This document shows, in pieces, positions 24,135 through 53,586 of a stretch of DNA of 64,000 bases. Both the position numbers and the translations under genes were made by a program. Below the pieces are notes generated by a model. The model was not told where the DNA came from. It worked only from the letters and a program-made list of their open reading frames with translations, and searched no databases. This DNA is from Haplodiscus bocki (Eukaryota), in assembly GCA_965655095.1 (NCBI GenBank), contig OZ296649.1, positions 11,780,001 through 11,844,000 of the forward strand. The letters are read 5' to 3'. Positions within the stretch are counted from its first letter, which is position 1; each line of letters opens with the position of its first letter.

Positions 24135-25500
24135 GACCAAAAGCGAAATCTTTGCAACATTTCGAGAACTGTCAATAAAAACATGACTGAATTTTTCTCG
24201 AAGTAGAAATAACTCGATTGCCTCAAGCTGCTGAAAGATAATTTCAAAGTTAATCCTGTTCTCGTCCATTTGGGAAAAAGTTTCAAACATTTGCTGGCTT
24301 CTCTTGTTGATAGGTCGAATACTAGGTGGAAATCTTTATACTGATAGTCTTATAAGGTAAAGCCGTTGCGCCGCTTTTGAATCACAAAGCTGTTTTGGTA
24401 ATAAAAAACAGTCGGGTGTTGTTCGATGTATCCAATGGCGTTGCTGCAATACGCAAACCGTTTTTTCACAGCACCTCGACCTTTTGCAAGTCAACTTTTT
24501 CATAACTAAAGGGCGCTAAAGCAGTCGTTGTTCCGTGGAAATAACAATTCCGAACCATCCACATTGTTAAGCGACGAATGGATTAAGTGCCGAAATTGTT
24601 CTTTTAAAAATTTTTCTGTCCGGATTGTATGATAAAACTTTTTGTTGAACTTTCTATGTACCGATTTACTGCACAACGCTTCTTGAGCACCCGTTCAATG
24701 CTAAGTTTCAAGAGATACGACAATCTTGTTTCTAACAAGGGACGCTTCCTCAATTATCACTACGGGGAGTTTTTTATCAGAACTTTTACATGCATCTGCT
24801 TCCAATTCGGTCCAAGTTTCCAACACGCAATCTTTGGGCGAGCAATAGAAGCGCAAGTGAAGTGTCGCGACTGGCAATAGTAACCGCTGGCAATCCAATA
24901 ACTCGACATGTGGAGCTCAATACAGCTAAAGTGAGCAGCTACCTAAATCAGCTATTTTTTTCAAGATTTTATTTTATTTTTTACTTCTAGATTCCTGTCT
25001 TTGTTAAGTCGATAACGGTAGCCCATAGAAACCGTCCATGTCTAAATGCTGAGGGGGTCTGTTATTAGTTATGTTTCGGAAAAAAAGCGGCATGATGGTA
25101 GATGTCGTTGCTACTGGATATCAAATTGCCGTTAAGAAACAATTCAACACTTGAGAACAAAGATTGTAGCGTATTGTTGGATAAAAGTACATTGTCTGGC
25201 GTTGCAGCATCTTTTCTATCTGGGTTTTATAGTTGTACGGCCAATGCCAAACAAATTTGGTTCAAGTCAATGCAGTTTTTTTGTCTGACGTGACGAAAAA
25301 AATTGAGCTGAGACCTTCCGCTACCTACAAGACGAAAAACACCTTGATCGACCGATCCTTCGTAATTTATCAGTACGGACGGTTTTTGAAAGAAGTCAAG
25401 AGCCGTGTGGGTTACGGGATTTTCAATTTTACTGCAGGCTCCAACAATGAGGTTTTGGTGGTACTGCTGGTACTCATCACTCCCTCTTTCGTTTTCTACC
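24135..25500 (-). pseudogene. Polinton major capsid protein (double jelly-roll)
   Basis: Fragments ALDFFQKP, IDL, NNTLQSLFSSVELFLNGNLISSSNDIY, IEEASLVRNK, SIERVL..KSFIIQSGQ..IRRL..PFSY, LVFDLS, IELFLL..VFIDSSRNV match the Polinton MCP pattern. Confidence 0.85.
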
Positions 25501-25559
25501 GCTTGCTAGTCTGGTTCTTCAATAGCTGTAGAACGCCACACCAGAGAGTAAATCGGACT

Positions 25560-26119
25560 GACTTCTCGTAGCAGATTTCTTTCGATTAACAATTTTCGCA
25601 ATTTATTGTCTCGTGTTTGTCGCCCGAACGACGGCCTGCTCGCCGCCTGACGTCTGCCGGGTCCACCAGGGGCCGCTCGCCGCCCGCCCACCTGCTTCAT
25701 CTCGCGCCGCCCGCCACGGCACGGCAATCGGTCCCCCAGTCTCAGGTACACTTGCAATTGGTTTATTTGATGTATATGCGCGAGCATCATCTCTTTTTGA
25801 AGAAGCTATGGCGAAGGAGGTCGAAGCAATGGTTTTTGCAACACTTTTCTCCAGTTTCCCACCGCACAGCCTTTGGTCTTTTTTTACCCGAGATGACGTT
25901 TGACGTTTTTGGCACAAATGCCGCTAATAAATTCTTTGCAAACTCCTTGGCCACAAACAGCACGTATTGTTTTACGAGAGGGATCGCCACGTGGCCAATA
26001 CGCATGGCGAAACCAGTCAGTCCTCCAGTTACATACTGACGCGCAGGCACGCAAAAAGCGACTGCATTATGAGTGCGAATCGTCTTTTGCTTGATTTCAA
26101 TTGCAAAGTGAGCACCCAA
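25560..26119 (-). pseudogene. Small basic amphipathic Polinton protein (adenovirus core/membrane-lytic-like candidate)
   Basis: ARQ..GGLTGFAMRIGHVAIPLVKQYVLFVAKEFAKNLLAAFVP..ISGKKRPK followed by an Arg/Gly-rich tail; located between penton and MCP. Confidence 0.55.
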
Positions 26120-26411
26120 AAATCTGTGTTGTTCTACTTATCTCCGTGTCTGTTTTTCCTAACGGCCACAGTAAAGAAGATAATTTTCTCTGGCTGTCTT
26201 CTGTTATAGGTTGCGATCGGAAAAATCTCGTTACTGTTAGTTGGTTGGATGGATGGATGGAAGCTGCCTACAAGGAGCAAGACTGGTTCATCTAACTTTC
26301 AATTTAGAGAATGGGGAGAACGACAAAATTTAGAAAAAAGCACGCGGAGCTAGGAAGGATGACTGTAGTAACAACAAGTCAAGTAGACAACGTGGGCGAT
26401 CGCTCTGGAAG

Positions 26412-27360
26412 TTATTTTGTTTGTCCAAATTGCAGAGTCATGTTTGTTCCTCTACGAATCAAAAAAGGAATGAGACCACCGGTTTCATTTCGGAGTGCAA
26501 TGGTTGATGAAAGAATTGAAGACATTATCACTCAACTTTTTGGGAATTTTCGATGTCTTTTACTGTCACCGAGTGTTACGGCTCTGAGTAGTGCTGTTCG
26601 TGTATCGTTTTGAAGCAAATCACAGTAAACGAACATAGTGAGACGATTGTTACCTGTTTGCTCGGTTATTTAGCCGCGCCTTTCAACTTTTTTGGTTTTT
26701 TAAAACGTCGGGGACCTTTAAACCGTAACATCCTTCAGGGTGTTTGTTGTCATCATTCGTTTGGCTACAGTCAAATAAGTACTCCAAACCGAGCATAAAT
26801 TTCAAATCTTGGGAAACAGCTGAGTCATAATATTTTTTCATGATTTGAAGTCTCGCTGAACATTAGGTGCAGTAACCGAGATGCTTCGCAAATGTCCCAG
26901 CTTAGCGGCAATTGACTGAAGTTCTAGCCAAGACTGCTGGAGAGTTGTCGCACGCGGATTAGAGGATGGAGTTGACCCAGCTGTAACAGCCTTTCGTTAT
27001 GGAATAAAACTTCTCAGATGAAAATTCTTGTTAAAGCGCAGAACTGTTCCATTTGAACAAGTTCGTGGGAACATACATGGAAACATTCCGTTACGAAAAC
27101 TCGGCCGCTCAACAATAGTTTCCTGTATGGACGTATCACGGTTTCCTTCATCTCGAATAAATTGATTACTGCACAAACTTTCTGTCACGTTTTCAACCAA
27201 GCCGGGCCTTGACAACTCCACCCAGCCAATCTCCCATGTACCTTGGAGCACTATTGACTGTGGCAGTAAGGTTGATATTTCAACAAGCGTGTTATGGTGA
27301 AACATTTGACATGAAAGCGTTAGAGACCAAGGTATTGGTGAAGCTTTGCTGTTTACTCAT
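26412..27360 (-). pseudogene. Polinton minor capsid protein (penton)
   Basis: N-terminus MSKQQSFTNTLVSNA..NTL...LLPQSIVLQGTWEIG; C-terminus MFVYCDLL..ALLRAV..IALRNETGGLIPF..GTNMTLQF*. Confidence 0.85.
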
Positions 27361-33573: not shown

Positions 33574-33650
33574 AGATTGAACAGTAGTGGAAATAGAGAC
33601 AGATGCGAACTAGATTGAACAGTAGTGGAAATAGAGACAGATGCGAACTA
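33574..33650. repeat. 38-bp direct tandem duplication
   Basis: AGATTGAACAGTAGTGGAAATAGAGACAGATGCGAACT x2. Confidence 0.95.
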
Positions 33651-34469: not shown

Positions 34470-35823
34470 CGAAATATGCTCGAAAAAGCTTCAAGAAATT
34501 TAGAAGTAAAGTCTTCCTCGGAAATATCCGATGTGAGAGCATAAAATTGGTTTACACAAGGATAAAATGCATTTCGAGGATTACTTCATCATCCTTAAAT
34601 ACAAGATCTGAAATTAAAAACCTCACATAGTTAGTTGGATGACACACTTATGTAACAAAGGTGGGCGTCAGAATTTGAGATAAATAACTGGCATGCCCAA
34701 TTTACCGAAGAGCAAGGAAAGAATGGCGTCAATGCGGAAAAACTTGCAGTCATGCTGGCTTGAAATTGAATTTCCATGGCGCAGTTTGTTCGCCGTATAA
34801 AAATTCGAGGTTACAGATCTTGGTCATAGAATTTATTGAGCGTTTTCAAATTAGTCAGTTCAGTTCCATGATGGGAAGTGCCAACCCAAGTCACTTTTGG
34901 AGATGAATGAGTATCTGCGAAATTTCCACTATACTATTTCTTTGCAAATCATTCATGAAGCTGATTAACGGTGACAATAGGGAAACTGACACAGATGCGA
35001 CGCTGCGCTTCACAACACTTGCGCCAACGGAAAACTAGTGAACATATCGAAAAAACAACTGATTTCTGGAGGGGTCACGATAATACGAATATCAACTGTA
35101 CAAAAACTCAGTAAATTCTAGTACATTTATATGCAAGAGACGCTATAGTACGTCCCTTCAATCGCTTGATATTTTAAATGAAAATACTAATTCTCAAGCG
35201 ATAATATCACAGTCAGTAGAACATGCAGAGAAAAGATCTGCCATCACGCGCTATTCTTATACCAGATGAACTGCCGGAAAATGTAAGTTGAATGGTTTAC
35301 CTTCCAAGATGTTTTCCATTCGAGTGGTTGTTCAGATCACTTGTCCGGAATGTAACTCTCGCCATGTCGGCCAAACGGCCCGACATGGAAGTACTCGTCT
35401 GCAGAGCACAGTAAGCATTTCTAATTACTCCAGAGGAGCTTACCATCTACATTCAAAACTTATTTTCTCAAATTAAAATACTCTAGAGCGAGCTACCAGA
35501 TTTCCCTTGACCTTGTCTCTTGAAGCCCTGTATGTCCGGAAACTGAAACTTACCTTCAATCCAAGATGTATTTAATCTAAGGAGCTCTCCGAGATTGAGC
35601 TGAATGTGGTCGCAAGAACATTGGTTTTATCAAATGAAGATTTCATCTAACTACATAATGTTTTCTGTTGCTTTTGATTTCGGATATTGTTTCACTGATG
35701 ATGAAGTAATCCTCGAAATGAATTTCATCCGAATGTAATTAATTCTATGCTCTAACATCACATGATATTTCCAAGGAAGATTTTTCTTTTTTCACACCTT
35801 CACGTCTTCTCGAGCAATTTTCG
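34470..35823 (+). mobile_element. Truncated Penelope-like retroelement with inverted 5' pseudo-LTR
   Basis: RT-thumb-like TDTDATLRFTTLAP; GIY-YIG VVVQITCPECNSRHVGQTARHGSTRL and LEALYVRKLKLTFN. A ~125-bp inverted repeat (34470-34593 vs 35697-35823) contains CTGATGA...GAAA. Confidence 0.8.
35690..35735 (+). ncRNA. Degenerate minimal hammerhead ribozyme motif in the Penelope pLTR
   Basis: CTGATGA-tgaagtaatcctc-GAAA-TGAAT-TTCAT-C with near-palindromic stem III and an AUC triplet; stems I and II imperfect. Copies at ~34550-34595 (minus) and ~56662. Confidence 0.5.
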
Positions 35824-36255
35824 TTAGGTTGATGAGCTTAATGCCTAAAAAACTGTAAGCTTGAGAGAGGTCAATTGTCCGTAACAGAATGCCTACAGGT
35901 ATTTTTAATTTGGCAAAAGATTACCCAATCTTGCTCGCATAAATCAAAGACAATCTTTGGAGACATTTCTAAAGTTAGTTTCCAATTTGATGATGTAAGT
36001 GAAAAAAATTAACCTCAAAGTTTGCAGCACAGCTGAATTGTGTGTTAGGTAATTCTCAGTCTGTATTAGCTCGTCTGATATTTCTTTTACTCTGAAATCA
36101 TCAACAAGCTGCACAGAGTACGTTCTCAAGAACGATTATTATTTGACTTGTTTTGTCCATCAAAATAACATTCAGTTAAATCTCTTCAAAACGGAAGTAC
36201 ACACTGAAAAAGTTAAATTATCTCATCGACTATCAATCGATATGAAATTTTGGAT

Positions 36256-36515
36256 GGCTCTTTCCCGTTATCCCCCCCCCCCGCCCTACTGACAAAATTA
36301 TTATCCCCCCTTCCTAGCTGATGCTCAGATGAGCAGTATGGTTGAAGTTTCTGTTTAATATAAAGTTATTGCAAATACCTGTTTGTTTAACTAGCTTCAG
36401 CAAGCAGTCAGCTTCTTGGAGGGTACTTGAGAGTTGTGTATTGTGTGCACAGTCTACTGACTCGCAAAAGACGCTACAGCTTCGATTGGGGGGGGGGGAT
36501 AACGGGAAAAAACCC
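36256..36515. mobile_element. Mutator-like MITE (~260 bp)
   Basis: TIR GGCTCTTTCCCGTTATCCCC / GGGGATAACGGGAAAAAACCC; 9-bp TSD ATTTTGGAT / AATTTGGAT. Confidence 0.85.
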
Positions 36516-36673
36516 AATTTGGATATTTAATGCTCAAACTGCCAAGTATGCCTGAGTTTTTTAAAATTTCCTTTGAAAAATCATCGAAAAATCCCAGCTT
36601 TTTCTAAAATAACCCACATTCTGGACCCAAAATATGTTTTTGGCTGGCGTTGCTTTTCTGAAGAAGTGCCGAC

Positions 36674-36873
36674 NNNNNNNNNNNNNNNNNNNNNNNNNNN
36701 NNNNNNNNNNNNNNNNNNNNNNNNNNNNNNNNNNNNNNNNNNNNNNNNNNNNNNNNNNNNNNNNNNNNNNNNNNNNNNNNNNNNNNNNNNNNNNNNNNNN
36801 NNNNNNNNNNNNNNNNNNNNNNNNNNNNNNNNNNNNNNNNNNNNNNNNNNNNNNNNNNNNNNNNNNNNNNNNN
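36674..36873. other. Assembly gap (200 N)
   Basis: Run of N. Confidence 1.
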
Positions 36874-37719
36874 GTATAAGAATTCGAGGTTACAGATCTT
36901 GGTCATCGAATTTATTGAGCGTTTTCAAATTAGTCAGTTCAGTTCCATGATGGAAAGTGCCAAGCCAAGTCACTTTTGGAGATGAATCAGTACCTGCCAA
37001 ATTTTCACTATACTATTTCTTTGCAAACCATTGATGAAGCTAATTAACGGTGACAATAGGGAAACTGACACAGATGCGACGCTGCGCTTCACAACACTTG
37101 CGCCAACGGAAAACTGGAGAACATATTGAAAAAACAACTGATTTTTGGAGGGGTCACGATAATACGAATATGAGCTGTACAAAAACTCAGTAAATTCTAG
37201 TACATTTATATGCAAGAGACGCTATAGTACTTCAATCGCTTGATATTTTAATAAAAATACTAATTCTCGAGCGATAATATCACAGTCAGTAGAACATGCA
37301 GAGAAAAGATCTGCCATCACGCGCTATTCTTATACCAGATGAACTGCCGGAAAATGTAAGTTGAATGGTTTAACTTCCAAGATGTTTTCCATTCGAGTGG
37401 TTGTTCAGATCAGTTGTCCGGAACGTAACTCTCTCCATGTCGACCAAACGGCTCGACATGGAAGTACTCGTCCGCAGAGCAGAGCAAGCATTTCTAATCA
37501 CTCCAGAGCTTACCATCTACATTCAAAACTTATTTTCTCAAATCAAAATACTCTAGAGCGATCTACCAGATTTCCCTTGACGCCTGTATGTCCGGGAACT
37601 GAAACTTACTCTCAATCCAAGATGTATTTAATCTAAGGAGCTCTCTGATATTGACCTGAATGTGATCGCAAGAGCATTGGTTTTATTAAATGAGCATTTC
37701 ATCTAGCTAACTACATAAT
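36874..37719 (+). mobile_element. Second copy of the Penelope remnant (copy B, left part), interrupted by the LTR element
   Basis: GIY-YIG remnant at 37361-37636; the sequence resumes at 56625. Confidence 0.85.
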
Positions 37720-40342
37720 TGTCGCCCGTAGTAGGGGGTATTGCAAATCTATTAGTTACTTAGTTGTGCTGGCGGTTGACTAAGTCAGCACTGCTGTGTT
37801 GTAGCGACGGCAATTCTTTATATTTCTCAATAGTGTGCCTTGCTTATCCGTGCGAACAAACGGATTGCGTGAATTCAAGCAAGGACTTGTGAGCTATAGC
37901 GGAGGATAATACAACGGAAAGTTAAATTATCAGTATTTCAATATTTTGAATTGCTGAAAGGAATATGACTGCACGTACGTAAGGGGGAATTACTCAGCTC
38001 TGGAGGAGTGAACGTATAAATAACATCACACTAATTCAGACTAGTTTAATTCAGTCTGATTTGAAATGATAAAAATAAATATAAAAGTTGAATTGGTTTA
38101 ATTAAATCAAATTAAGATTTTATAAAACCACAATGAGACGATCGGACTCTCTCAACTTCGTCGAAATGAATTTTGAACTGAATTTTCAAAATTAGAAAAT
38201 CGGATTCTTTCAATTCAGTCCAAATGAAGTATAAGTTATAAAGTAATAAAAATAGGCTGATACAGGATAGCTGCTGTCGGAACTGGAACATCCGTAAATA
38301 GAGCAACAACATACACCAATTTACTTTTTGACTAGTGCGGTGATTACCTTTCCGTCTTATCGAGTCAGGTTATTTTAGCCAGTTTGTTTTACGTTTAGCT
38401 AAACCACGTTATGCTCTAGTTTTCCAGGCCAACGGGTTCACCTCCTGGTCCCTGTTTTAGTCCTCGCTGCACAGGCCAGTCTTTGAGGGAAGGGAGTGCA
38501 ATTTACATGCATTTTACATTACTCTTAGTATAAAAAATCACCTCCGTGCGGTATAAAACCAGCTTGTAGGGTTTAATCTTAAGACTGGTATTTAGTCACC
38601 TGCTGATTAACAGTCCGGACCCACGGGACACCAGCAATTAAATTTTACTCTTTTAACTGCGACCAGGACATTAGTCAAGGACTGTCAACTAGTCGTGATT
38701 ATTATATGTGTTTTACTTTTACCAATCAATTCTAAGTCTTAGTAAAAAAAAGGAAAAATTCAAAAAAAAGGAATTTTAGAAAAGTAGGAAAAGTAACAAA
38801 AAGGTCCGCGGTGCGGTGATTAAACCCTGCTACCGGGCAGCTAATCCTACGTCAAATCTTGAGGAGATGTCCTCTATTAGCAACCGTAACTATAACTAAC
38901 AGAGGCTGGCGTGAATCGCGTAGGTGCTGCTTGTAGGATGATTACTGGCGGTTGCGTGAGTGCTGGTTGATGGATGAATGCTGGTTGCTGTTGCTGCTGT
39001 TGATAGCTGCTGCTGGTTGCGGCTGGGATACTGCTTGTTGGATGATTGCTGCCGCTGGTATACTGCTTGCTGGCGAAAAAGTCTTTGAATATTTTCAGGA
39101 TATTGATGATTTGCGGCTAAGACAATTCTGCAGTCGAAACAGTCTTTGAACATTTTCGGGATATTGATGATTTGCGGTTAAGACAAATCTGCAGGCGAAA
39201 AAGTCTTTGAATTTTTCCGAGATATTGATGATGTGCGGCTAAGACAACTCTGCAGGCGAAAAAGTCTTTGAATATTTTCGCTGAAGTGATGAGGAAAATA
39301 AATCAATGAGGAATTTATTTTAAATTCTTGATGAGATTGGAGTGGAAAAGAGGTTCGCCTCGGGTAAGTAGGCTAGCAGGTGGTAGGAAGCGGTTCTGAG
39401 AAATAGAGTGTACGGGGTATTCATACCCTGTTATGGCGCAATCGAATAATTAACCAATAGGAGAGCGCTGCAGATAGCAATGTTAACGAAGATCATTTAG
39501 TCGGTAGGAATAGTTTGTATTTTGCAAAAAGGGACGGTTTCTGCATATTTAATCCGTGTATTGGAAATTAGAATGAAGTCTAATTGCCACGGACGCAGAC
39601 GAGGTGAGATATGATCTATGTAACGTCAACTCTCTTTCATAGGAACCTCGTGGGGTCGTGCAGTTTAAGATTTATTCATGCTTCAGAACCGGAGCTCGTC
39701 AGCGGAATTCGCACACGCTAATACCGAAGCTAGCGTTAGTGGACACTGTGTTTAGACTCCAGCGGCAAAAGTATAGAATGAAGATGCGAGAAGGAATAAT
39801 TTTCTAACCCAGAATATTTTTATCCGAAGGAAGAGGAAAGAGAATTTAGATTAATTTTATCCAAGCAAAAGGGAAGAGGAACGTAAGGTAAAAAGGAAAG
39901 GAAAGAAAGTAAAGGGGAAGAGGAGAGTAAAATAAGGTAAAAGGGAAAGGAGTAAGGCGTTCCGTTCCGTCCGGTGAGCGAGTTAGTGAATAATGATCGA
40001 GTTCCTTTCCCGGACCAGCTCCCAAATGAAGCTATGTCGAAATACCACGTGACCAGTCACGTGATCATGCAAGCAGGGTGCATGTCTAAATTTGAATATT
40101 GAGCCAATCGCGTTGAGCCACGTTCCAACGCATTTAGAAACTTTGCTTTTCCTTCCTTTGTGCAATTCCAATCCTTCAGCTTTCTTTTATACCGCGTGTT
40201 ATTTTATCCCGTCCAGCTCCCACGTTAGTCAATAACGTCTGCAGTTCTCTTTGTTAATCATTAATCATTTCCTGTTTAACAGCTTACTGCACGTATTTGA
40301 GAAATAAAACACATTTGTTTAAGCATTAGCTATAACCCGACA
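37720..40342 (-). repeat. 3' LTR (2623 bp)
   Basis: TGTCGCCC...CCCGACA; homologous to 53590-56624. Confidence 0.95.
39069..39280. repeat. 61-bp tandem repeat (~3.5 copies) within the 3' LTR
   Basis: GCAGGCGAAAAAGTCTTTGAATATTTTCGGGATATTGATGATTTGCGGCTAAGACAATTCT, with unit starts at 39130, 39191 and 39252. Confidence 0.9.
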
Positions 40343-40395
40343 ACTCACCGGGGTTAAAAGGATAGAAAAGTGTTTGGGGGGTTCTATAAAAAGCA

Positions 40396-41043
40396 TCATG
40401 GTTGGGATGTGGAAGGTGTGGCGCCTTCAGGGTCACATAGGTCGGTGAACTTTATCTCCAAATATAAAGTATTATTTAAAAGAAAGTTTTCAGTTTTGCA
40501 GAACAACTTGCTGTATGGGAAGAAGTTGAAGTTCGTCAGGGTAGGACATGGTTCTCGGGTAGGCGTTCGAAAGGATATCTTCTCGGAGGGTGCGAAGGTG
40601 ATAGTCCACTTATTCTGGGCGTCAAGTTGATCACAGACTGATAGATGAGTCGCTTTAGGGAACGGCCATGCCAATAAGCCATCGTAATCGCCGGGGAAAA
40701 AGGCGAACATAATTGAGGCGTGATTTCCAGTGGCAGAGTCCAAACGCTAGGGGTAAAACTGAACAAAGAAGTTATAGCCATGAGGGTGTGTGCGGTACAC
40801 AGGTCTATCATAATGAGTACTGGGGTTTGTGGCAGCATCGTCAAGTCGGACAGCAGATTTGGCAGTGTCGAAAACTAATGTCAAGGAAGTTAATTTCCAC
40901 AGGATATTGTCGGAGCCTCCAGACTCCAAGGCTCGGAATCTGTCATACAGAAAGGAAGGTAAATTGGGATCGGTAGATGGATATAATCGTTTCTCGACAC
41001 TTTCTTGCCTTAGTAACTTCTTCCAGTTGTTTGACTCGGGCTT
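40396..41043 (-). pseudogene. TRAF-type MATH domain with short coiled coil, captured by the LTR element
   Basis: EARVKQLEE..RFRALESGGSDNILWKL..PVYRTHPHGYNFFVQFYP*..TGNHASIMFAFFPGDYDGLLAWPF..LSVCDQ..FAP..SFRTP..FLLNNTLYLEI. One frameshift and one stop; preceded by the acceptor TTTTGTTAG. Confidence 0.9.
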
Positions 41044-41105
41044 CTAACAAAATGAAATTATTAAATGAAAAACAGCTAATAAGGATAACGCTCAAATTAT
41101 CCTAA

Positions 41106-43213
41106 TCAAACAGGGGAAAGAGCGATAGTATGATGATGAACAATCGGGTAAATGTGTTCTTCCTTCTTCTTATTTTCATCTACTGGATCTCTAGTCTCGT
41201 CTTCTATTCTTGTGGATATTGGTTCAGATTCCAACGCTTGTAGAAGAGGAGCTTGGGGATTGAATAGTGACGTTAGATTAGACGTCAAAAACAAACTGTA
41301 AGAAGCGCTCAGGGGTGCCTTGCCAAATCCAAGTGATGCGCCAGTAGGACGGTTAGCTTTCATGTGTCGTAAGATCATAACTATGATATCGACGATGAGC
41401 TTGATAAACAGGAAGCAAGAGAAATATATTCCACAAAATTCCAAAACATAGGCAACTAATCCAAACGTGTCCATAAACTGATTTTTGAAATAACTGGGGG
41501 AAATCATGTTGTCCACAGAGAATGCCATTCCTGGGGCATAATAAGAGTATTGTTCTGGTCCATGAATTGCTGTGTTGGGGACAAGGAGTTCTCAAGAGAA
41601 ATTTTATAAAGTTTTCCTTGAAGCAGCGCTGATAAGGATATTGTCCCAGAATCCAGATAACTGTGCTCGTGTGTAGATTCCAGCATCTCCTGCTTCACCA
41701 AAAGCTCTTCTGGATACAGGAGTCACATCCTTTGGTCCGAACACTGCAGGGCGTTTCCTGTGTTCGAGTGGGTGTAATAGTGAACCAAGAGTTCTCATAT
41801 TCCATGTCAAATTGAAAGAGATTCTTAATCCGGTCCGAACAATTTTGAACTTGGGCATGTGGGTAGCTTTGCCTGGTGATTGGGTCAACAAAGAAGCTGG
41901 CATTTTTGTAGAAGATAGGGATTTTGTCATAGCATTGGTTAATCACATGTGGCGGAGAACGCATCAGAGGGCAGTGATATAGCCAAGCGAGGCTGCCATC
42001 GGTACTGAGGAACATAGAGCGATTCCCAGTTACCATATAACCAGTTAGACGTGGGTTTTCCATTGAAAGCATCAAAATAGTCAATATTTCGGTTCTTTCT
42101 TGTTCGCATAGGTTCTTCAAAAGTTGTATCTCGGAGCCTTCAAGCATCTTTGAGCTTTCGAAGAATAGATAATCCAGTTTGGTTCCCTCATGGAGTTTAC
42201 AGTGTACGTTGAGGTATTGAGGCGTTTCTGGGTTAGGTTTATTTGTATGGGGTGACTCAGACTTATGTACGAATAGCCTGCCGTCAGATGAAACTGGAGG
42301 CTGGTAGTATTGTAGATGTTGTGTTCCTCCTGAGAATTCCATTCTTTTCCCAGAAGCTAGATCGAATCCACCAAAGTCGACAACCACGTATAATGAATCG
42401 TAGTTGGTCGGGTATACTTGTACTGGTTTGTTACAGAAGATCTTTGCTTCCGATTTTACTTCGAACAGATACTGGCTGCTGTTGTTTCGTCCACTGACGA
42501 TATAATAAATGTTTTTTACTTATTGATCATGTTAACGTCTTCTTTCCGATGAATAGCTAACACCCAACTGTCAGGGGCGTCCCATGGTAATTGCAATCCG
42601 TCTTCGCTCATAACTTGGCCATCCTTATTACGTATTTCAAGCACGACGTCTCGTACATGGCCTTCAAATGTCTTGCGATTTACCCATCCATATGAGTCGC
42701 ATTGACTTGTATATTTGTCGCTGAGGTCCGCTCCATCGTTATCAAAATCCTTTATTTTACAACCGTTGTTTTGACTCCTTTCTTGAACTCGAGTGTCTCA
42801 TCGTTTAAAGTGATTGAACCTCCTTTCGCTAAGGTTCTGCATTAAGATGCTGTAACGGTTAAGTCTATTGTTATTCCTCCTGTATGATGGGCGTCCATGC
42901 TTGAGTCGACTCCAAAGCCACAGTGACATTGTTCGCGCTGATATTTGACTCTACAGACTGTTGCGTTGATTTCTTGTCGAAAATGTTTTGTGTAGATAGT
43001 AATTTTTGCTCTGCTGACTTCTAGGTTCTCGGGAGCAATGTTGCATTTGGAAACTTGGTTTAAGGCGTAGGGGTTGTTCGCTGTCATCTCTCCACAGTCA
43101 TATTGTGTCACTTTGAGTTGGGAGGCTATGTCGTGCAAATCTGCGTTTTCGAGCTTGCCATTTGTGAAACTGGCTAAAACAATTAGGAACAAGACCTGGT
43201 CTATAACATCCAT
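41106..43213 (-). pseudogene. env: env: class III fusion glycoprotein (herpesvirus gB / chuvirus G-like)
   Basis: Signal peptide MDVIDQVLFLIVLASFTNG; YDC; CRVKYQREQCHCG; LDYLFF..LCEQER..ENPRLTGY..LYHCP..CYDKIPI..FVDPITR..QNC; C-terminal TM VAYVLEFCGIYFSCFLFIKLIVDIIVMIL. Frameshifted. Confidence 0.85.
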
Positions 43214-43339
43214 TGCATTTGCAAATGGGAAGGGTAGAGAGGAATGTTTCATCACAACTACCAAGAGAAAAGAGACAGCCGTAATATATTTTACCGGCTA
43301 CTTCGTAGGCACTAACAAGAAGCGGTAGCACTAAATTTA

Positions 43340-43585
43340 TAGAGTCGCTACACTACTCTAAAAAACGACGCCGAGATTTTTATAAAGGGTGCCGGACTAA
43401 AACCGGTATCACCAAAAAAGTGCGCCGGACTAAAACCGGTATCGTCAAAAAAGTGCCAAAAAAAAATTTATCTTACTTCCACCATAGGTAATAGATGATT
43501 GTAGTTCCCAGTTGGCTCGCACGTTCAACTATCCGGGTTTTGTTTGTTTGTAGTTCCCAGTTGGCCCTTACGTCCAACTATCAGA
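43340..43585 (-). promoter_or_regulatory. Putative internal promoter upstream of env
   Basis: Minus-strand TATAAAAA at 43384-43377, just downstream of two duplicated motifs (GCCGGACTAAAACCGGTATC x2; TTGTAGTTCCCAGTTGGC x2) and ~170 bp upstream of the env ATG. Confidence 0.4.
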
Positions 43586-43674
43586 AATTTGTTTATTGGT
43601 GAAGCAGATTGGTTGATTTGAATGTGTTGCTAAGACTTTGTAGGGGTTGTGAACAACTCATCTACCTTCTTCGT

Positions 43675-44085
43675 CTATTGTCTGAGTTCCAGGTCGTAAA
43701 GATTGCAAAGTTCGTGCAATAGGTTGATCAGTGACACCCCAGTGTAGGTCCCAAGGTTAGCTTTCATATACGCCAGGAGATCTACTAATCTTTGATTTTC
43801 CGTCGTGTCTAAAATCGGAGTGGCCAAGTTCCGACCGGCAATTGTGAGGGTCACAAAGAGGTTGGCGAATTCTGCTGCGCGGGCAGGTATTGGGATAACA
43901 ATTACAGTGGGTAGATTCTCAATCGGGTTGGTTCGGACTTGTAAAGGACTCCCGGCGGGTAGCGAAAAAATATTAGTGATTTTACACTCTCCCAAATTAA
44001 TTGAAGTCCAGTTGCAATTGAAATTAACTCTGTTGAGTGGTGTGTTTGTGTGTGACTGGGAGATTGATATTTCTAATTGATGCAT
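43675..44085 (-). CDS. Accessory ORF of unknown function (136 aa)
   Basis: Intact ATG-to-stop ORF between pol and env, abutting the upstream ORF (TGA-ATG). Confidence 0.6.
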   Translation of the reverse strand: MHQLEISISQSHTNTPLNRVNFNCNWTSINLGECKITNIFSLPAGSPLQVRTNPIENLPTVIVIPIPARAAEFANLFVTLTIAGRNLATPILDTTENQRLVDLLAYMKANLGTYTGVSLINLLHELCNLYDLELRQ

Positions 44086-44307
44086 TCAAATGATGAGTTC
44101 TTCCTTTCCACACTCCAGGTCTCCTGGAATATAAATGTCTGTTGCGAACAGTCGTCTGATGTGTTTGTAGTTGATTGATGTTTGTGGACACTTGTAGACT
44201 TCGAGATTCCCCTCTCCGTCTTCTGTATGGATATAGATCGCTGTTGATGAGGACTTCAGGTCAAACTTTTTGATACACTTCAAATACCCATCAATTTTGA
44301 CATACAT
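44086..44307 (-). CDS. Accessory ORF of unknown function (73 aa, possibly 5'-frameshifted)
   Basis: Protein-like composition; its stop directly precedes the next ATG. Confidence 0.5.
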   Translation of the reverse strand: MYVKIDGYLKCIKKFDLKSSSTAIYIHTEDGEGNLEVYKCPQTSINYKHIRRLFATDIYIPGDLECGKEELII

Positions 44308-44794
44308 CGTTCATAGCAAATCTGAGGATGTACTCTTCAGTTAATTCATTGCTAACGATGTATAATTTAGGTAAGTATTATATATAGTAACTATGTACTA
44401 AATAATGTAGGAATTTAGGAAACTAGGTTTTTCGTACTATCAACTAAAAAATCAAATAAAATGAATAAAATGTGTATAAAAGTTTTGGTGGCATCCTCTT
44501 TTTTTGTTTCGTTCTGCTGTCCTCGTCACTGCAGGGCCTTCCGGGGGTTAGAAGGGTAAGGTAGGCGTTTATAAGTTTAGGGCGAAATTCAAATAAACAA
44601 CTGGGAGAGAATCCTTCAGCACTGTTTTTGGTTCCGGGAGAATAGCCTAGAGCTATCTCTTGTCGGGAGCTCTTCGATTTCTTATCATTGACCTGTCGGC
44701 AAGGGGCAGCATCATTGTGCCGAATAGGATAGAGGCGTCATATTAAAAGCAGGATGGTCGTAGGTTCCAAGGGTTAAGGTAAAATTATTGCAGG

Positions 44795-45347
44795 ATGGAC
44801 AGTGACTCGGACTCCTACTACGAGGAAAATTGTGAAAATGAACAAGAGGTGGCGAGCCCCCTACACAATCGTGCAAGTAAATCTGGAGGACTCTACAGAA
44901 TCCCCACAGCCAGGTCCTCCGTCGCCCTTGCTGCCACCGCAACCAATTCCTGTGGGCGAATTGTCCCCCGTCTGGGAGCTGCCAGACGACGGGACGAATT
45001 TTATAAATTTTTTCACAAGAGCAGATGTGCTCGACCTAAAACAAAGGTCAGAGGCAACGCGACAAAGAAGAAATGAAGAAGGGTATATGGTGGAGGAGCC
45101 AATGCTGTCTCTGAAGTTTGTTTCGTTCCTCATAGAGTATCACGGTACTCAATGGGAACTTAAATTCATGCGGGCAGCGGCAGAGCCGTTGTTCGCCCAG
45201 TTATTGGGGTATGTAGCGGGTTATGCGCGGCTAACCAGCCACAACAAAAAGATCTTCCGCCAGGGATTCGAGACCTGGTCCGTGGAGGTCAAAAGGGAGC
45301 AGCTGAGGTTGTTGGCGGAGTCGGTCGGTTTCCTCGGATTAGAGTAA
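44795..45347 (+). CDS. Antisense accessory ORF (~180 aa)
   Basis: 181-aa open frame opposite to gag/pol/env, with a Pro-rich linker and helical C-terminus; probably starts with the acidic MDSDSDSYYEENCENEQEV via one frameshift. Confidence 0.55.
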
Positions 45348-48300
45348 GCTGCTCGGCTCTGTCGGTCGTCGGGGGCCTTTTAGCCTTCGGCGGTCTTTAT
45401 ATTGTCTTGTGCCATAGTTCACTGTGCAGCTTTCTTCTTTGGAATTGCACAACAAATAAAAATATTTTTGGCTTTACTGCAATATTTTTGTAAAAACTTG
45501 TAGAAAACATCAATCAGAAGTTGAAGTGGCGAGCAGAGGGTAAGTTGAATCGTCCACAGTGGAGGATCTTAGCAATATTGCTCAAGGTAATCGGAAATCA
45601 AGCAAAAGCAATAACTCCGAATAGGAAATAATGGTGCATGTAATATGAAAGTTATAAAATCGTGGCAATGTTATAAAAGGGATCAAAGTTCATAGCCCTG
45701 CCGGGTGATGGTTCTCAATACTGACTGAGAATTGGGTTGGTCTGGCTCTGAGCGGTTATATTTGGGCTCTTTAGAAAGCAATTTAACGCTATTTCCAGCC
45801 ATGCCGGCGGCACTGTTACGAAAAAATTGTTGAATTGGACTGAGAGGTTCCTTGGGCGACGATTGAGCAGCTTGTGCATACTGTGAAGAAGATGAATGGG
45901 TGGCTGATGTTCCAATAAGAATTGCGGGTGATAGCACAGGAGTTCGAGAAGAAGCACGTGGAGAAGTAATTCCTGAATTGTTACTGTGCGTACTAGGTCG
46001 TTTCGGCTTGTTTGTGGACCAAATAGCTCGTAACGGTTCTATTGGGAATGAGAAGGAGTCATGCTCTTGTTATACTTGGGTTTTTCAAATCTCGGGCGCG
46101 TTGTTCCCTAAAGCGTTTGTAGAAATTGTTCTGTTGATCAGGAGGTACATATTCTTCGATCATCGCGGGTAGGGATCCTTCTTTGGGGTAATACTCGACA
46201 AGGTGATTTCGATGAACAGTTTTGATAATCGTGGGGTCTTTATCATCCTGAATTTGATAGGTGGTATTCGTGATAAGCTTGGTGACAGTAAAGGGTCCAA
46301 GTCGTCGCTGTTGAAAATTTTGGCTTCGAGTAAGGTCTTGTTTGTGATTTTCATAGAGAAATTTCTGTCCTACTTCGAGGTGATGTCCCAGCTTGAAACG
46401 ATTGCGATAGGCGTGTGATCGTGCACTTTGTTCACGGCAACGTTCAAAGGTTGATGAATAGATTTGTTTGAAGGTTAGTTCTCTGTCTAAGAGAGCTTGT
46501 GATAATTGCGGCTGAAGTAGCTTGTCTAACAATTCGTTTTTTAAGCTGTTCTCGCTATGAGAAAGAGGGGGGCGGTCCTTACAGAAGTTAGAGCAGCAAA
46601 GCTTGTGCTTATTCCGATAAAGTTCCAATCTGAGGGACATAGGAATTTGGGGTTTAGTCAAGAAGACAATTTCATATGGGGTTCTCCCAGTTGTGTAGTT
46701 GAAACTTGTGTTGTGGGCGAATGCAAACTTGGGTGCTAGCGAAGACCAGTTGTTTCCGGTATCGTTCAGAAAGTTTCGCCAGAATCGAGCAATATGTTGG
46801 TTCTGGGTTTGAATTTTACCATTTGTCCAGGGTGAATGAGCTGTACGAGGTCTTAGGGTAATTCCAAGTTCTTTGGTCCAGTTGACGAACTCTGTATTAA
46901 TAAAGGCAGTGCATCGATCATGGATGATTGATTGCGAGATTCCACAGGAAAGGATCCACTTTTCCACAGTTGTAATAGTTGCTAGTGCTGTTGTATCACG
47001 TACTGGGTAGACCATCAAAAATCGAGAGAAGGCATCAATGATTAAGAGACAATGTACATTGTTGGCACCAATTGGGTGAAGAGGTCCCTTATGATCAATG
47101 TGCACAGTGCGAAAGGGAACTGTTTCGTTTTGCCATTCCTCTAGTGGAACTTCATTCCGATGCTTTGGTTTAGGTTTATTATTCTGGCAAGTAAGGCAAT
47201 CGGCTGTCAAAGCACATATCCAACCAAACATTCCAGGCCAAAAGTAAAATCTCTTGGCATTGGCATAGGTTTGGTTGCTCCCTTGTGTCCACCCATTTCG
47301 TTGTAGTGTCCCACTCGGAAGCATGCAAGGAAGATGCATAAAGGGAGGCAAATACGGAGATTCTCTTCTAGCTTGTCTGACGGTTCATTATAGCAAAGGA
47401 GCTGTCCTTCTTCTTCAATAAGACGTCTATCTAATTCTTGACAGTATCGTAGGAAACCTTTAGACTGTTGGATCTCTGGTGATATAGTATCGGGAGGAGT
47501 GTTTCTACGAATCCATGAACGTATAGAACCAAGGACTGGACCTTCATTTGTCCTGTGAGGATAGTCGATACGTCGAAGTCGACTGTCTTCGCAATCTCAT
47601 CAAGTTTCCGGATTAACGCCTTGGTATCTAGATGAAAAGCATCACAGGTTGTTAGGAATTTCTTGACTAGCGAAGCATCAGTTTTCCCAAGCACCAGGTC
47701 GTGAGCTTCTTTGGCTTGACAGAGTCGGGCTCCGTCAGCTTGAATACTGATATCACAGGCGATATTGTCATCTTTTGAGTCGGTACTAATGTGGTGTGAG
47801 TCATCGCCGGGGCTCGTCGAGTCTGCTGTGTCATCTTGGGACGGCCTAAAGGAGTTGATTGAACTATAGTCGGTATTGGATGCGTTGGGAGAGACGCTTG
47901 ATTGGGTCTCTGGTCCACATATTCGTCTAAATTGGTTGATAAGTCTTCCCATTCGGAAACAGCCTGAAGCCTGTTGGATTGAAGTGATTGGAAATTTGTC
48001 GAGCATACAACTGACGGTAAAGTCCTCGCCATCGTTTTGTAATCTCAGTATTTTTTCTTCGTTGCCGCGTTCGTACTTTATTGGGTAGAAATCGTTGCAG
48101 GTATTATTAGGGTTGTCTTCATGTTGAATTTGGTAAGACACCGGAGTGCCGTGTTAGTCGAAAAACTCAATATCACGCGGAATACGTTTGTGTTGCATTT
48201 GGTGCTTTTGATATTCTTCGATCATGATGTTTCTGCTGACAGTATCTGGAAAGGCTAAGTTCGAGCCTGGCGTCCAAATGATCTTCAAGTTCTGGGATTT

Positions 48301-49879
48301 CGTAATGATCACCTGATATCGGAAAAAGCGATGCGATAGTTGTCATTTTCGGCCCCATAGATGAAGAATTGGTTCATGATTACAATAGAGATAAATGGGA
48401 AACGCTGATCCAATAAAGTGGTGTTCGTATGTCTGGAGAGCTGATACGATTCCACATAGTTCTCGATGGAGAGTGGACAATTTTTGTTCTGCTTTGTCAA
48501 ATACACGCGAATTGAAAGAGATAATTCTCTTTCCCTGAGGGAATTGTTGGATAAGAATACAACCTGTACCAACATCTGAAGAGTCCACGTGAATATGAAA
48601 CGGGTAATCGGTAGAAGGAACTGCTAGAACTGTACCTTTGTGAATTCGTTCCTTAATGGTGTTGAACAAATTTTCGTGTTCTTCAGTCCAGTGGAAAAGT
48701 GTAGAATCTTTAGGTCATAAAAGGGCTGACTATCAACGTGTAAGTTCTTGATAAAGTAGCTGTAGAAACTAAGACATCCCAAGACAATCATAACGTCTCG
48801 CCTACTCGGTGGTGACTTGAGGTTCCTCAGGGCGTCCACACGCTTTGCTATTGGTTGAATCCCATCTGGTGAGATAACGTGTCCCAAGAACTTTACTTTC
48901 TTGAGAAGAAAAACGTCTTGTCGTGGGCAGCTTTTAACCCAGCCTTCCGCAGAAGGGTGTGATATTCATTGATGATGGTGAACATCTCGCCTCTAGTTTG
49001 CGATTGCATAATGGTGTCATCAATGTAGGTAATTGCTTGCTTTTTCCTGATCAGTGGGTCAAAATGAACCGTCATCAAGCGATTGAAGATGTTTGGTAGG
49101 CCACACAGACTGTAAAAACCTCGGGTGAAAGTATATTGCCGTCCACCGAAGATGAAGCTTGTCAATTTCTGTGTTTCGAAGCTAAGAGGTACTTGATGGT
49201 ATGCACAGGACAGGCCGCTGACTGAGAAGAACTTTCCATTTACTCTCATCATAATCATCTGAACGGGTCCTAATGGCCAGGAATAGTTTGTGAGGTCGGT
49301 CACTGAGTTCACATAGCGAGCATCAATCACTAGTTTGACGTAGTCATTCTTTGGCATCAGGAATATTGGGTTAACAAAGAGAGCTCCCATCTCGTCGTCA
49401 TCACCCATTTCTCGAATGATTTCGGCGTCCTCAAATTGTGTCAGCAGTTTCTCGAGTTTGTCTCTCAGATGTAACGGTACTTTGTTAGCTTGCTTGCGTT
49501 TCAGTTCCACGTTCGGTTTTAATATAACGTGAAATTTTCGTTGGGTTTTTCCAACATCGAATTTGTGGAGGGAATACACATCCTTCGAGTCGATTAGCAT
49601 ATCAATAAGGAGGGTCAATTCATTGTCAGTGATGTCTGAGTACTGAAAATCGAATCGTTTAACGTAATCAATTAGCTCTTTAGGCTGATACTGAAGATAG
49701 TGGTCAAAAAGAGCGAGCTTCGTTTTCTTCTTTCGGGCGTAGAACGGGAAATTGTTATCGCAAACTGGTTGACAGGACTTGGCGTCGCTGGTAAAATCAG
49801 TTACAAATTCCCTTTCGTTCAAATGAAATTCCTCGCTATATCGGTCTATCTCATCTTCGGCATAACTCAGCGGAAATAG

Positions 49880-50050
49880 CGTGAATTGCGTGTTCGTCTA
49901 ATGAGTAGACCACGTTTTGTATATCTGAATAGGCAAAGATATTTCGTAGGAGCTTTACTACATCTTGCCAGTTCATCTGGTCAAGACCACATCCAATCTT
50001 TGGTATGGCAATCGTTGAAACTCCGTGCATTGTAGAGCGTGCTTGCAATC
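49880..50050 (-). pseudogene. C-terminal half of a TARG1/OARD1 (DarG-like) macrodomain within pol
   Basis: MHGVSTIAIPKIGCGLDQMNWQDVVKLLRNIFAYSDIQNVVYSL matches the PxIGCGLD.L.W..V...F....I.VY.L signature. Confidence 0.85.
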
Positions 50051-50877
50051 GTTGTACTGTTCGTTTGTCGAAAAGATTGCGTTCGTTAGCTCATAAGGGT
50101 CCCGTACTTGGTACTCTGGTTCATCGTTGTCGGAGACGTCCAATGATGAAAAGCCAATTCGGCCCTTAGGCAAAGTAATTTGGTGATTCTTGTTAATTTC
50201 CATAAGTATAGTTAGTTTTGATTCTGATGGAGTGCATAGCACAGTGACAAATGATAGTCCCGTAGTGACAGCATTGCGATTTGGGTGAAAAGTTGATCCA
50301 GGAGGGAAATGAGCGTGAGGATCTTCAGGAGAATACTTCCAGCATCTTGCGCTCTTGGCTTTAATGTGCATTGCATGCGGAGTTCGTATTGTTAGGATTT
50401 GCGAAATGAAAGGGTGCGATTTGTTCTGATGAAGGCTTCCATAACACACAGTATTTGGTGGGTCTTTAAGTGCAATTCCGGGTGAATCAAAAGGAATACC
50501 AGATTTTTGCTTTTGACAGAAGTCCATGCCCAGGAGGTTCTGAGTCTTCATTTTGGTAATCCAGGCAGTCAAGGGGAAAGAAAATTGTCCATCCGGATCG
50601 TAACAGAGTGTTAATGTAGCAAAGCCAATCATAGGCACAACTTGACCAGAATAAGTCCTTGTTTGTGTAGTGTTTCTTTTCACCTTGATTGGATGTTGGG
50701 TTTGGCATATTCCCCGAATGGTTCGATAGTTTATGACTGAGCTAGAAGCTCCAGTATCTAACACGAATCCAAATTCTAAGCCACTATCTTTTTGAGTGTC
50801 TCCGGTGGCAAAGAAGAAAAAGTTAAAGCTGAGTCTTGAATTCTTGGACGGATTAGTAGTAGTTGAACTTGGAGACC

Positions 50878-52264
50878 TTAATAGTTTAAAGGGCATAGTC
50901 CCGATAGTTCATTCATTTCATCGTCTGTTGTATTGAACCGAAAGACGTTCGGCTGACCACCATTATTGGAGGTTGGGAACTTCTTGTTTTAGGGATTAAC
51001 ACTGAAGGATTAGGCGAGTTGAGTCGGGGTTGTCTGCGGGAATCCGTAAAAGATGAACCTTGTCCTGCCGTTGAAGGCGATCGCGAATAGTTATTGTTAC
51101 TTCCCCAATTCCTAGATTGATCTTGGTCGGACTGATATGGTTGGTGATCTCGCTCTGCAGTCGCTGAACCGATTATTGTTGTTACTCGGGTAGTCTCCTC
51201 GCTCGAAAGGTCTGTTTTGTCTGAATCTGCTAGAAATCTGATTACTTGGCCGAAGTTTCCTCCAGTAAAAGATCGGGGGGTTGACATCATAGCCCCATTA
51301 TCATCGTTCTGTCTGGTCCAATTCCCAGATCTATGGGAAGGTCCACGTCACTTGTTGTAGTCATGGGTGAACGTAATCTTTTTCTCGGCTGTGGCTTCAT
51401 TCTGTAACTTCTTGACTTCTTCATATCGTATCTTCTTTCTGCAAAAACTAGGAGTCTGACCATTGGTTCTACAGTATCCACAAAATCTTGTAGCATTCTG
51501 TCTTCTCTTCTGGTTAGGGTCAATGGTTTTCTGGTTCCCTTCTAAAGCGTTTATTCTGTGTTCCTTCAGATCAGTTCGTAGGTTTTTTAATTGTCCCAAG
51601 GAGGCCATTTGAGCCTTGTTCTGATCTTCGTCGTTCAGGAAGCTAGTAGACTTGATAAGATACGTCTTTGTAGATTAAATAGGTTAGAAATCGTTCCAAG
51701 TTGCATTTGGATGTTCCATCAGATATTCCTGAGCCTTTCGTTGTAGATACCTTGGTCTGAGTCCCCTTAGTGTGTAATCGATGTATCTTTATCGTCTCTG
51801 GCGAACTTGTGCGGTGCGTTCGGCGGCCTGTTCAGCTGCTACAACTCCATCCATATCGTCGGGCCAGCCTTTGTCCACTGTTTTCATTAACCGGTGAAGG
51901 AAGTTTCGAATCTCTTCTCCATCTGCTCGTAAACAATGTTCAACTTCCATTCTGTGTCTGAAAATGTTTCTTCCATCTGAAAATCTGGTTATGAACAGAG
52001 TTCGGACCTCATTCGAAGTCATTGCATCTTGAATAGTTCCCCATACCATTCAGCTGCTGGTGCTCTTAGCAATGAAGAAAATAAGACTTTCTTTCTGAAT
52101 AAATAAATAACATGTTCTGCATCGGCTTCGTCTGGTTCGGTTCCGAGAGCAAAATTATTCTAGCACTCTATTAAGCGGATGAATGCTTCTGCAACTTGGT
52201 CTGGGTCTGTGCCAGAGAATTTGTCCAGTGCCAAGTCTGGGTAAGCTAGATGAGTATTGGCCAT
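50878..52264 (-). pseudogene. gag: gag
   Basis: MANTHLAYPDLALDKFSGTDPD..LLRAPAAEW..FITRFSD..GEEIRNFLHRL; Zn knuckle CGYCRTNGQTPSFC (His lost). Stops and frameshifts. Confidence 0.88.
50884..50890 (-). promoter_or_regulatory. -1 ribosomal frameshift heptamer U-UUA-AAC at the gag/pol junction
   Basis: The gag frame reads ..TGC CCT TTA AAC TAT TAA; the -1 frame TTT AAA CTA is the open protease frame. Confidence 0.65.
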
Positions 52265-52282
52265 TTTAGCAATTATATCTTC

Positions 52283-53100
52283 TCAAAACAAGAAGTCTAG
52301 TTGTTCTCCAAGAATATGAAGTTGGTGGGAGTTCAAGTGGGGTTCAGGGAAATCCACGTCATCGTTTAGTGCCTCTGATAGAGATTCAAGTAAAGGGTGA
52401 TGTTTCTTAATGTTTATTCGTTTCGAATTATTTGGGTTTTCTTCTGGATGGGCAGTCATTCTGATCCAAAAAGTCCATTTCAAGCACGTAATGATGGCTG
52501 CTAGGGTTTCGTGTCTTGGGAGGTGATATTCCAGAGGCAAATCAGTGGAATATGTTTGCAGTCTTCTTCGGGTAGCTCGTCCAAATTCGTTATCGAACTT
52601 TCAAATTTTTGTGGCATTAGTTCTCAACACGAATTTATTATGAAAGAACAATTGAAGTTGTCTATGTATATTGGTTCACCACTGGGTCAGTATGGAGTGA
52701 ATTGATAACTGTCAAGTCCAATTCGGGAAATCCAAGTTCTGGAAAATCGTGACATCTTTGAATAGCAGCGATTGAAGCAAAATGTTCGTGGAATCTCAGT
52801 GTAATAAATTTAATAAATAGGGGTTCCCCAGTGGGATGGACTTGTAAACGAAGCCGAAACTGTCGGTGAAGGGTGAAATCAATCCTTGCTATTGTCACTT
52901 CTAGTTGTTCGGTTGGGGTTTTTATTGTCCACGGGCAGAACGGGAATACTGGTTTGAATTCGTTGTATTCGAAGAAGTACCAATGTTGGTTTGGGTCCTT
53001 TCCAAATTCCAGGGGCATTAGCTAATTATTCGTCAGATTGCTTGTTCAGAATTTGCCCAATTTTAATAACTGCCAAGATATAACTGGGTCCCAAGTGTAG
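52283..53100 (-). pseudogene. Pre-gag accessory ORF of unknown function (fragmented, ~250 aa)
   Basis: ORF pieces at 52662-53018 and 52283-52540, linked by a protein-like frame and ending just before the gag ATG. Confidence 0.5.
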
Positions 53101-53359
53101 AGGTAGCAAAAGAATCAGCACGAGATACAGGAAAAGCACGAGGTCTCCTCTCATTTCCGAATGGTAGAGTTGCTGTGATTCAGATTGTCGTCAATCTCGG
53201 ATAGTGCATCCAAAAGGGCAGGATTCAGCAAAAAAAACCAATACTATTAAAAGCAGCAGATATAAATAAATTATTAAATCGTGATTCATCTCCTTAAAAA
53301 ATAAATTAGTTTATCAAAAACAGTGGTAAAGCACATTTGAAGCACCCAAAAACGATGGA

Positions 53360-53563: not shown

Positions 53564-53570
53564 TGATGTG

Positions 53571-53586
53571 CTTCACTGTCGCGCCA
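53571..53586 (-). promoter_or_regulatory. Primer-binding site TGGCGCGACAGTGAAG (tRNA not assigned)
   Basis: TGG begins 3 nt inside the 5' LTR end. Confidence 0.75.

Follow-up and report, generated by a model that had tools for sequence, protein, structure and literature searches.

A step in LTR identity within an apparently old Ty3/gypsy-like element of Haplodiscus bocki resembles that of a converted LTR pair

Which part of an LTR pair records the age of an insertion when the parts disagree? The question is raised by an LTR retrotransposon in a 64,000-nucleotide stretch of the Haplodiscus bocki genome (contig OZ296649.1 of assembly GCA_965655095.1, positions 11,780,001 to 11,844,000; this whole stretch is the window, and coordinates are those of the window), in which the two LTRs are nearly identical in one part and diverged in the other. 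A preliminary description of this DNA placed the step in identity at a predicted transcription start, and attributed it to a young insertion copied from two co-packaged RNAs. The step is real and its best explanation is an ordinary one; the locus works like a converted LTR pair. The features that bear on this reading are collected in Table 1.

Table 1. Features of the element, its LTRs and its flanks in the window
Feature	Position	Strand	Remarks
Whole element	37720-56624	-	LTR, pol, env-like remnant, LTR
5' LTR	53590-56624	-	3035 bp; TG...CA ends; terminal inverted word TGTCGC; self-BLAST and alignment
3' LTR	37720-40342	-	2623 bp; TG...CA ends; self-BLAST and alignment
Putatively homogenised tract, 5' LTR (putative U3)	55677-56606	-	4 differences in 930 bp from its partner
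Putatively homogenised tract, 3' LTR	39395-40324	-	Partner of 55677-56606
U3 tip	56607-56624	-	Differs from 40325-40342 at 2 of 18 bp; taken to lie outside the tract
Diverged part of 5' LTR (putative R-U5)	53590-55676	-	
Diverged part of 3' LTR	37720-39394	-	Shorter at 9 of 10 indels
61-bp tandem array, 5' LTR	55299-55561	-	4.3 copies
61-bp tandem array, 3' LTR	39068-39280	-	3.5 copies
308-bp segment	53880-54187	-	In 5' LTR, missing from 3' LTR; covered by family contigs
Candidate promoter A	56443-56473	-	Perfect TATAAAAG at 56473; initiator-like A at 56443; AATAAA at 55958; motif prediction
Candidate promoter B	55679-55740	-	Reverse CCAAT at 55740; TATA-like word (1 mismatch) at 55707; initiator-like A at 55679 (39397 in 3' LTR); motif prediction
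Primer-binding-site-like stretch	53569-53586	-	TGG...; starts 3 nt past 5' LTR
pol, broken	45686-50908	-	Protease, RT, RNase H, integrase (H2C2, rve, p58-C); several stops and frame breaks; Pfam
env-like gene, broken	41695-43297	-	PF24664 Monjiviricetes_fusion in two pieces, E 2e-16 and 3e-6
MATH frame	40399-40746	-	TRAF/meprin MATH domain, PF21355, E 5e-12; between env remnant and 3' LTR
Empty site	34795-36653	.	Both flanks again, directly adjoining, element absent; junction near 35655
200-N gap	36674-36873		After the empty-site copy
Left flank, filled site	36874-37719	.	46 of 839 columns differ from empty copy
Right flank, filled site	56625-57621	.	59 of 979 columns differ from empty copy

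The two LTRs are direct repeats with TG...CA ends, as in LTR retrotransposons generally, and the Pfam domains of pol are ordered PR-RT-RH-IN, as in Ty3/gypsy. An env-like fusion gene is placed after pol, which makes the element an errantivirus in the operational sense, though the gene is broken; we file it as a putative env-carrying Ty3/gypsy element by structure, not by tree. Pfam gave no credible gag match in the element, and just a short purine-rich word is seen before the 3' LTR, where the polypurine tract is expected. The TGG primer word is common to the family contigs save one position, the primer site differs at one position from 99.8-100% of contig depth, and the primer-site motif has no match in seven supplement files of PMC13524379. 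The word GCGACA occurs twice, 6 nt apart, within 53575-53597, the primer-site-like stretch echoing the final bases of the LTR. Self-priming, considered for this resemblance, was rejected, with no complementary word near either candidate start in an alignment inspected by eye.

Elements of Ty3/gypsy type that bear env are widespread in invertebrates (PMC13524379). The window element shares with the errantiviruses described there, which carry a gB-type env, the arrangement of LTR, primer site, PR-RT-RH-IN, env-like gene and LTR as well as the fusion-protein Pfam match, but differs from those described in having all of its frames broken, LTRs of 2.6-3.0 kb, and an extra MATH frame after env. The words MATH and TRAF have no occurrence in the main text of that paper, and the frame is possibly a captured host signalling domain.

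Comparisons with the family were made with the assembled contigs of sequencing runs, including X1, X2 and X4, in which rare variants are dropped. The run search listed five runs, all as contigs and none of them RNA. With 22,494-26,704 matching contigs in each of X1, X2 and X4 the family is very large, and 1166 contigs of a further run, labelled coral metagenome, also match it. Integrase searches gave 809 relatives among 2636 candidates, the best 120 of which have 58-86% identity, self excepted. No related locus was found in viral contigs, including by an LTR motif search, or in prokaryote genomes, and 2 of 183 candidate related loci from a metagenome search were confirmed, neither with an LTR. 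A high ratio of LTR to internal depth was rejected as a count of solo LTRs, the internal leader being too diverged for contigs to align.

Global alignment of the LTRs (56624-53590 against 40342-37720) shows six mismatches and no indels in the 948 columns from 56624 to 55677 (40342 to 39395 in the 3' LTR). Beyond 55677/39395, 142 of 1673 columns (8.5%) are mismatched and there are 10 indels; the counts are identical under four alignment settings. The near-identical U3 and diverged R-U5 reported earlier are thus confirmed, with a Fisher p of 2e-21 for a split at 39397 and a change-point LR of 98, the maximum in 1000 permutations being 20. The LTRs therefore contain a tract of significantly higher identity inside diverged sequence, as is characteristic of intra-element conversion. 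The tip of 18 bp holds two of the six U3 differences (post hoc p 0.005). Divergence over the whole LTR is 148/2621 (5.6%), which understates the R-U5 value by about one third; whole-LTR dating fails here, as had been anticipated, with U3 and R-U5 giving different ages.

The step is real but its position is softer than the preliminary description stated. The first mismatch, at 55676/39394, does lie 3 nt past the candidate initiator A at 55679/39397, and the longest stretch free of differences (293 bp) ends with it. A model with one change-point nonetheless peaks at 55529 (95% interval 55689-55506) when all columns are used, and when the 61-bp array and the tip are left out and indels are counted the peak moves to 55676 (95% interval 55709-55117), with just 45% of the posterior at or upstream of 55676. 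In the segment 55676-55566, 3 of the 100 columns that are not near gaps are mismatched, which is above the U3 core (4/930) and below the remainder (7.4%).

The start site is likewise a matter of motif prediction. A scan of the 5' LTR for TATA (at most one mismatch) plus initiator gave six candidates, two of which have a perfect initiator-like word (56473/56443 and 55707/55679). The step boundary fits the predicted start of promoter B, for which the earlier proposal of a TATA/Inr start is plausible, with a CCAAT word and an AATAAA at 55601/39319, 78 nt downstream of the start; promoter A competes with it, having a perfect TATA and an initiator-like word as well. Contig joints that skip the promoter A TATA (56402-56594) are present in all four runs, and joints that end right before the promoter B TATA (55708-56324) in three of the four; their sides are just 19-22 letters long and they are not counted, although they give a hint in favor of promoter B. 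Contig depth is almost nil at 55678-55683 in all four runs and carries no weight as evidence. The depth of 12.8 in X1 there, against 4-11 for single-copy sequence, would fit two real copies, but depth is not copy number and the value was unrepeated in X2. As a rough estimate, the boundary would match a predicted start by chance in a few percent of cases, given several candidate promoters.

The diverged R-U5 parts have several features of their own. Without the array, a T-run and gap-adjacent columns they differ at 96 of 1296 columns (7.4%), and CpG decay accounts for little of the divergence (14 of the 142 mismatches). Outside the array and T-run the mismatches are Poisson-like (p 0.28); selection between two active lineages, considered for an overdispersion of R-U5 mismatches, was rejected when the overdispersion vanished on removal of these two. 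The indels are one-sided, with 9 of 10 shortening the 3' LTR (p 0.02), and R-U5 is richer in transversions than the flanks (transitions to transversions 63:79 versus 63:42). No run over 61 bp is shared by the two chromosomal R-U5s. The array units of both LTRs are 0-3 changes in 45 nt from one central unit with private changes in each LTR, and look as if both LTRs had decayed. The 308-bp skip is absent among the 15 of 573 contig joints listed.

Departures from the family contigs, for which 40 of 833 rows were listed, also distinguish the two parts. In U3, all 11 listed departures of the 5' LTR carry the same letter in the 3' LTR; in R-U5, three of seven listed alignable departures are shared by both LTRs and four are confined to the 5' LTR, with four more in gaps. 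The segment 53053-53566 is represented by one unbranched contig of 514 bp with no differences in X1 and by 381 bp in X2, and no near-identical sister or parent copy was seen for it among the listed contigs of these two runs, which drop rare variants.

A comparison of both flanks with the empty site shows 105 differences in 1818 columns (5.8%) and 17 gaps. The duplicated flanks are probably two alleles, 5.8% apart, set in tandem in the assembly across the 200-N gap, a kind of gap that scaffolded assemblies use. A contig from another sample (X4), covering about 220 bp, agrees with the empty copy at six of six listed places and has eight other letters, where the two window copies differ at eight; this match suggests that the empty copy is a segregating allele, with the filled haplotype an old outlier. 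No empty-type flank contig is listed in X1 or X2, so that heterozygosity within one individual is unsupported, and the flanks are possibly a tandem duplication rather than alleles.

Measured against the empty site, the target duplication is just 2 bp (AT, at 37718-37719 and 56625-56626), whereas most LTR elements make target duplications of 4-6 bp (PMC12440569). Either slippage in an AAT repeat, shortening a 5-bp duplication, or a family trait would account for this. Troyka, considered for its short duplication, was rejected, having CG ends and 3-bp duplications (PMC12440569). The divergence of the flanks should bound that of R-U5, and the higher R-U5 value (7.4-8.5% against 5.8%; p 0.08 after trimming) therefore counts against a plain old insertion; one-sided indels and the excess of transversions are also unexplained by plain symmetric decay.

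Pol provides another set of clocks. The longest integrase frame of the window, aligned with the 39 best-scoring of the 120 listed relatives, departs at 26 of 267 near-invariant columns and ranks 37th of 40 rows (row range 0.8-11.8%); a single base change would explain 22 of these departures, and 12 score below zero in BLOSUM. The corresponding d is 0.041 (0.027-0.059), not baseline-corrected, and two departures would be expected at the U3 age. One relative, L001, is less decayed, with an intact 968-codon pol frame at 1-2904 (RNase H to integrase C-terminus), and has 79% DNA identity to window positions 48579-44251 over 4.3 kb. With P0112 as the outgroup, window-only and L001-only changes number 40 versus 8 in RT-RNase H and 25 versus 4 in the integrase, and the window exceeds L001 in private amino-acid changes in all ten outgroup tests, eight of them with p<0.05 and two not significant. 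In a triplet with a further relative, L002, the counts are 26/274 versus 8/256 residues, which puts the window 0.027 per site in excess. Synonymous counts are equal (27 versus 24); at codons common to L001 and L002, private nonsynonymous changes are just 6 versus 2 (p 0.45).

Relative to the 968-codon frame the window has two stops and three frame breaks, with more breaks upstream. Expected stops are 5.6 at d 0.042 (P 0.08) versus 0.43 at d 0.0032 (P 0.07); the stop and frame-break counts lie between both predictions and give a lower age than the substitutions. From these comparisons we estimate that pol has decayed by approximately 3-4% per site (2.7-4.1%). Decay in pol may also be inherited, where young copies carry an old parent along (PMC5668417), and this possibility counts against pol as proof of an old insertion.

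Per lineage, the values are 2.7-4.1% for pol, 2.9% for the flanks, 3.7-4.2% for half of the R-U5 divergence, and 0.2-0.3% for half of that of U3. The substitution clocks agree with half the R-U5 divergence or with the flanks, and none agrees with U3. The independent age thus matches the diverged part of the LTRs, as in conversion, with stop and indel counts giving less. U3 had been taken earlier as the clock of a young insertion, at 0.2-0.3% per lineage; the 5.8% pairwise difference between flanks and empty site, the 2-bp duplication, the decay of pol and the two tip mismatches all point instead to an old one.

From the step, pol decay, flank divergence and tip mismatches seen directly at the locus we infer conversion as the cause, and an old insertion whose U3 was homogenised later is the reading that we regard as probable. 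Long ago, the element would have inserted with identical LTRs that then decayed neutrally by about 3-4% per site. Much later, only about one twentieth of the element age before the present as judged from 4 differences in 930 bp, non-reciprocal recombination would have overwritten approximately 930 bp of one LTR with the sequence of the other. The tract would begin no more than about 18 bp inside the outer end and extend as far as 55677-55710, and R-U5 would retain the true age. The tip mismatches would be accounted for by a conversion tract that stopped short of the end; reverse transcription copies both U3s to the very end from one template, and these mismatches therefore favor recombination.

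Three other explanations have to be weighed against late homogenisation. The heterodimer origin proposed in the preliminary description, a young insertion from two co-packaged RNAs, would have strong-stop DNA of RNA1 jump to RNA2, the minus strand continue through the R-U5 of RNA2, and the resulting heteroduplex resolve discordantly. The boundary 3 nt from candidate initiator B and the one-sided indels are consistent with this, and the rare letter in the primer site would fit an unprimed RNA2. There are also precedents, in that defective old copies take part in transposition by recombining in pairs, chiefly within R (PMC5668417), first-strand transfer may pass between molecules (PMC6894440, PMC5651808), and intermolecular strand transfers occur in HIV-1 (PMC5651808). 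The reviewed model of intermolecular first-strand transfer, however, yields two identical mosaic LTRs (PMC6894440), and discordance needs the extra heteroduplex step. A heterodimer would also need an RNA2 parent decayed by 3-4%, none being seen among the listed contigs, and a second decayed partner for the 3' R-U5, which lacks 308 bp of family sequence and has private changes in its array units. It would further need a young insertion, with a 2-bp target duplication, to have landed on a haplotype that differs from the empty one by 5.8%, and two new mutations to have arisen within the first 18 bp (p 0.005), where U3 identity is expected to reach the tip; every old clock would have to be coincidence. 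We thus consider this origin very unlikely.

An ectopic chimera, in which an old solo LTR or element recombined with another copy, its cDNA or a circle, with a long conversion tract at the crossover and R-U5s from two insertions, would account for the old flanks, the tip mismatches, the higher divergence of R-U5 than of the flanks and the one-sided indels; the last two together with the low transition share leave room for it. The very large size of the family also speaks for it, and in yeasts Tf1 cDNA recombines into existing Tf2 copies to give tandems and conversions (PMC11042837). Against it, internal decay equals half of the distance between the R-U5s, an agreement that one old insertion produces with no need of coincidence, and both R-U5s share rare letters at three of seven listed places, so that we rate it unlikely. 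An assembly artefact, by which collapse, polishing or a misjoin made the U3s alike or joined two elements through U3, is suggested by the 200-N gap and duplicated flank that adjoin the element and by the high copy number of the family, and none of the listed contigs spans an LTR. One empty site nevertheless matches both outer junctions, the junction of right flank and U3 is on a 494-bp contig with no differences in X2, and the U3s are not identical (4 core differences). Copies 8% diverged are easily separated by long reads, which also counts against an artefact, though the read type here may differ; we find this explanation as improbable as the heterodimer.

With about an even chance overall, U3 was homogenised late with the other chromosomal LTR as template, in ordinary break repair or unequal exchange; if the break lay at the promoter, this could have fixed one end of the tract. 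A more doubtful candidate is the element's own reverse transcript (cDNA). The LTR of this transcript would have the 3'-type U3 joined at the start site to the 5'-type R-U5, by the mechanism of reverse transcription reviewed in PMC6894440. It would pair perfectly with the 5' LTR over about 2 kb, getting past the 8% mismatch barrier, and would rewrite the 5' U3 alone, setting out from the start site and stopping slightly before the tip, so that the 5' promoter would be swapped for the 3' U3. A cDNA template would explain a boundary at the start site, and would require that a decayed copy be transcribed, packaged in trans, and primed despite the difference in its primer site. The coincidence of the boundary with a predicted start may therefore reflect either chance, a promoter break, or the element's own cDNA as template. 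No animal case of U3-only self-conversion by cDNA was found in the literature searched, with most subscription papers outside its coverage. If such self-conversion is true, identity steps anchored at start sites would be expected in old animal elements, and could be used as a map of start sites.

Late homogenisation has counterparts in other systems. Conversion within an element was reported for 25% of LTR pairs in plants, with tracts mostly of 100-1000 bp (PMC7251063, Jedlicka et al. 2020), and for 36-55% of spruce elements (PMC5751070, Cossu et al. 2017). The window element resembles these in having a patch of near-identity within the LTRs of an older element, a tract in the 100-1000 bp range, and a whole-LTR age that is too low; it differs in that the tract ends at a predicted start, a tie that the available text of the plant surveys does not make, and in that the empty allele supplies an outside clock. 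Recombination of Tf1/Tf2 cDNA (PMC11042837) is similar in that reverse transcripts pair with resident elements and convert them without integrase, but the demonstrations used induced elements in yeasts and pairs of related elements, whereas U3-only self-conversion would have to be supposed here. The recombinant LTRs of Onsen (PMC5668417; reviewed in PMC6894440) likewise join U3 and R-U5 of different origin in R with participation of old copies, but both product LTRs in that model are identical mosaics, whereas the window LTRs disagree and the locus appears old.

The identity of an LTR pair can thus understate age more than tenfold over one third of an LTR, as judged here with an outside clock available, and a segment of low divergence need not be the clock. 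Conversion among human LTRs is reportedly described in one study, and Ty1 cDNA also recombines into resident copies. If other old copies of the family step at the same place, this would point to reverse-transcript-driven repair of resident animal elements, and a shared step position, if found, would give a sequence-only test for such repair.

The window contains several further repeats. Positions 1-9909 are occupied by about five units of approximately 2020 bp that are 77-87% alike, the array running off the window start. A dispersed repeat of about 200 bp, 78-80% alike, is present at 14329-14520, 36259-36450 and 57220-57416, inverted relative to the copies in the two flank versions. Short tandem arrays at 16410-17099, 17321-17505 and 33574-33650 consist of repeats built on TCTTGCAAG and of two perfect duplications, of 91 bp and 38 bp.
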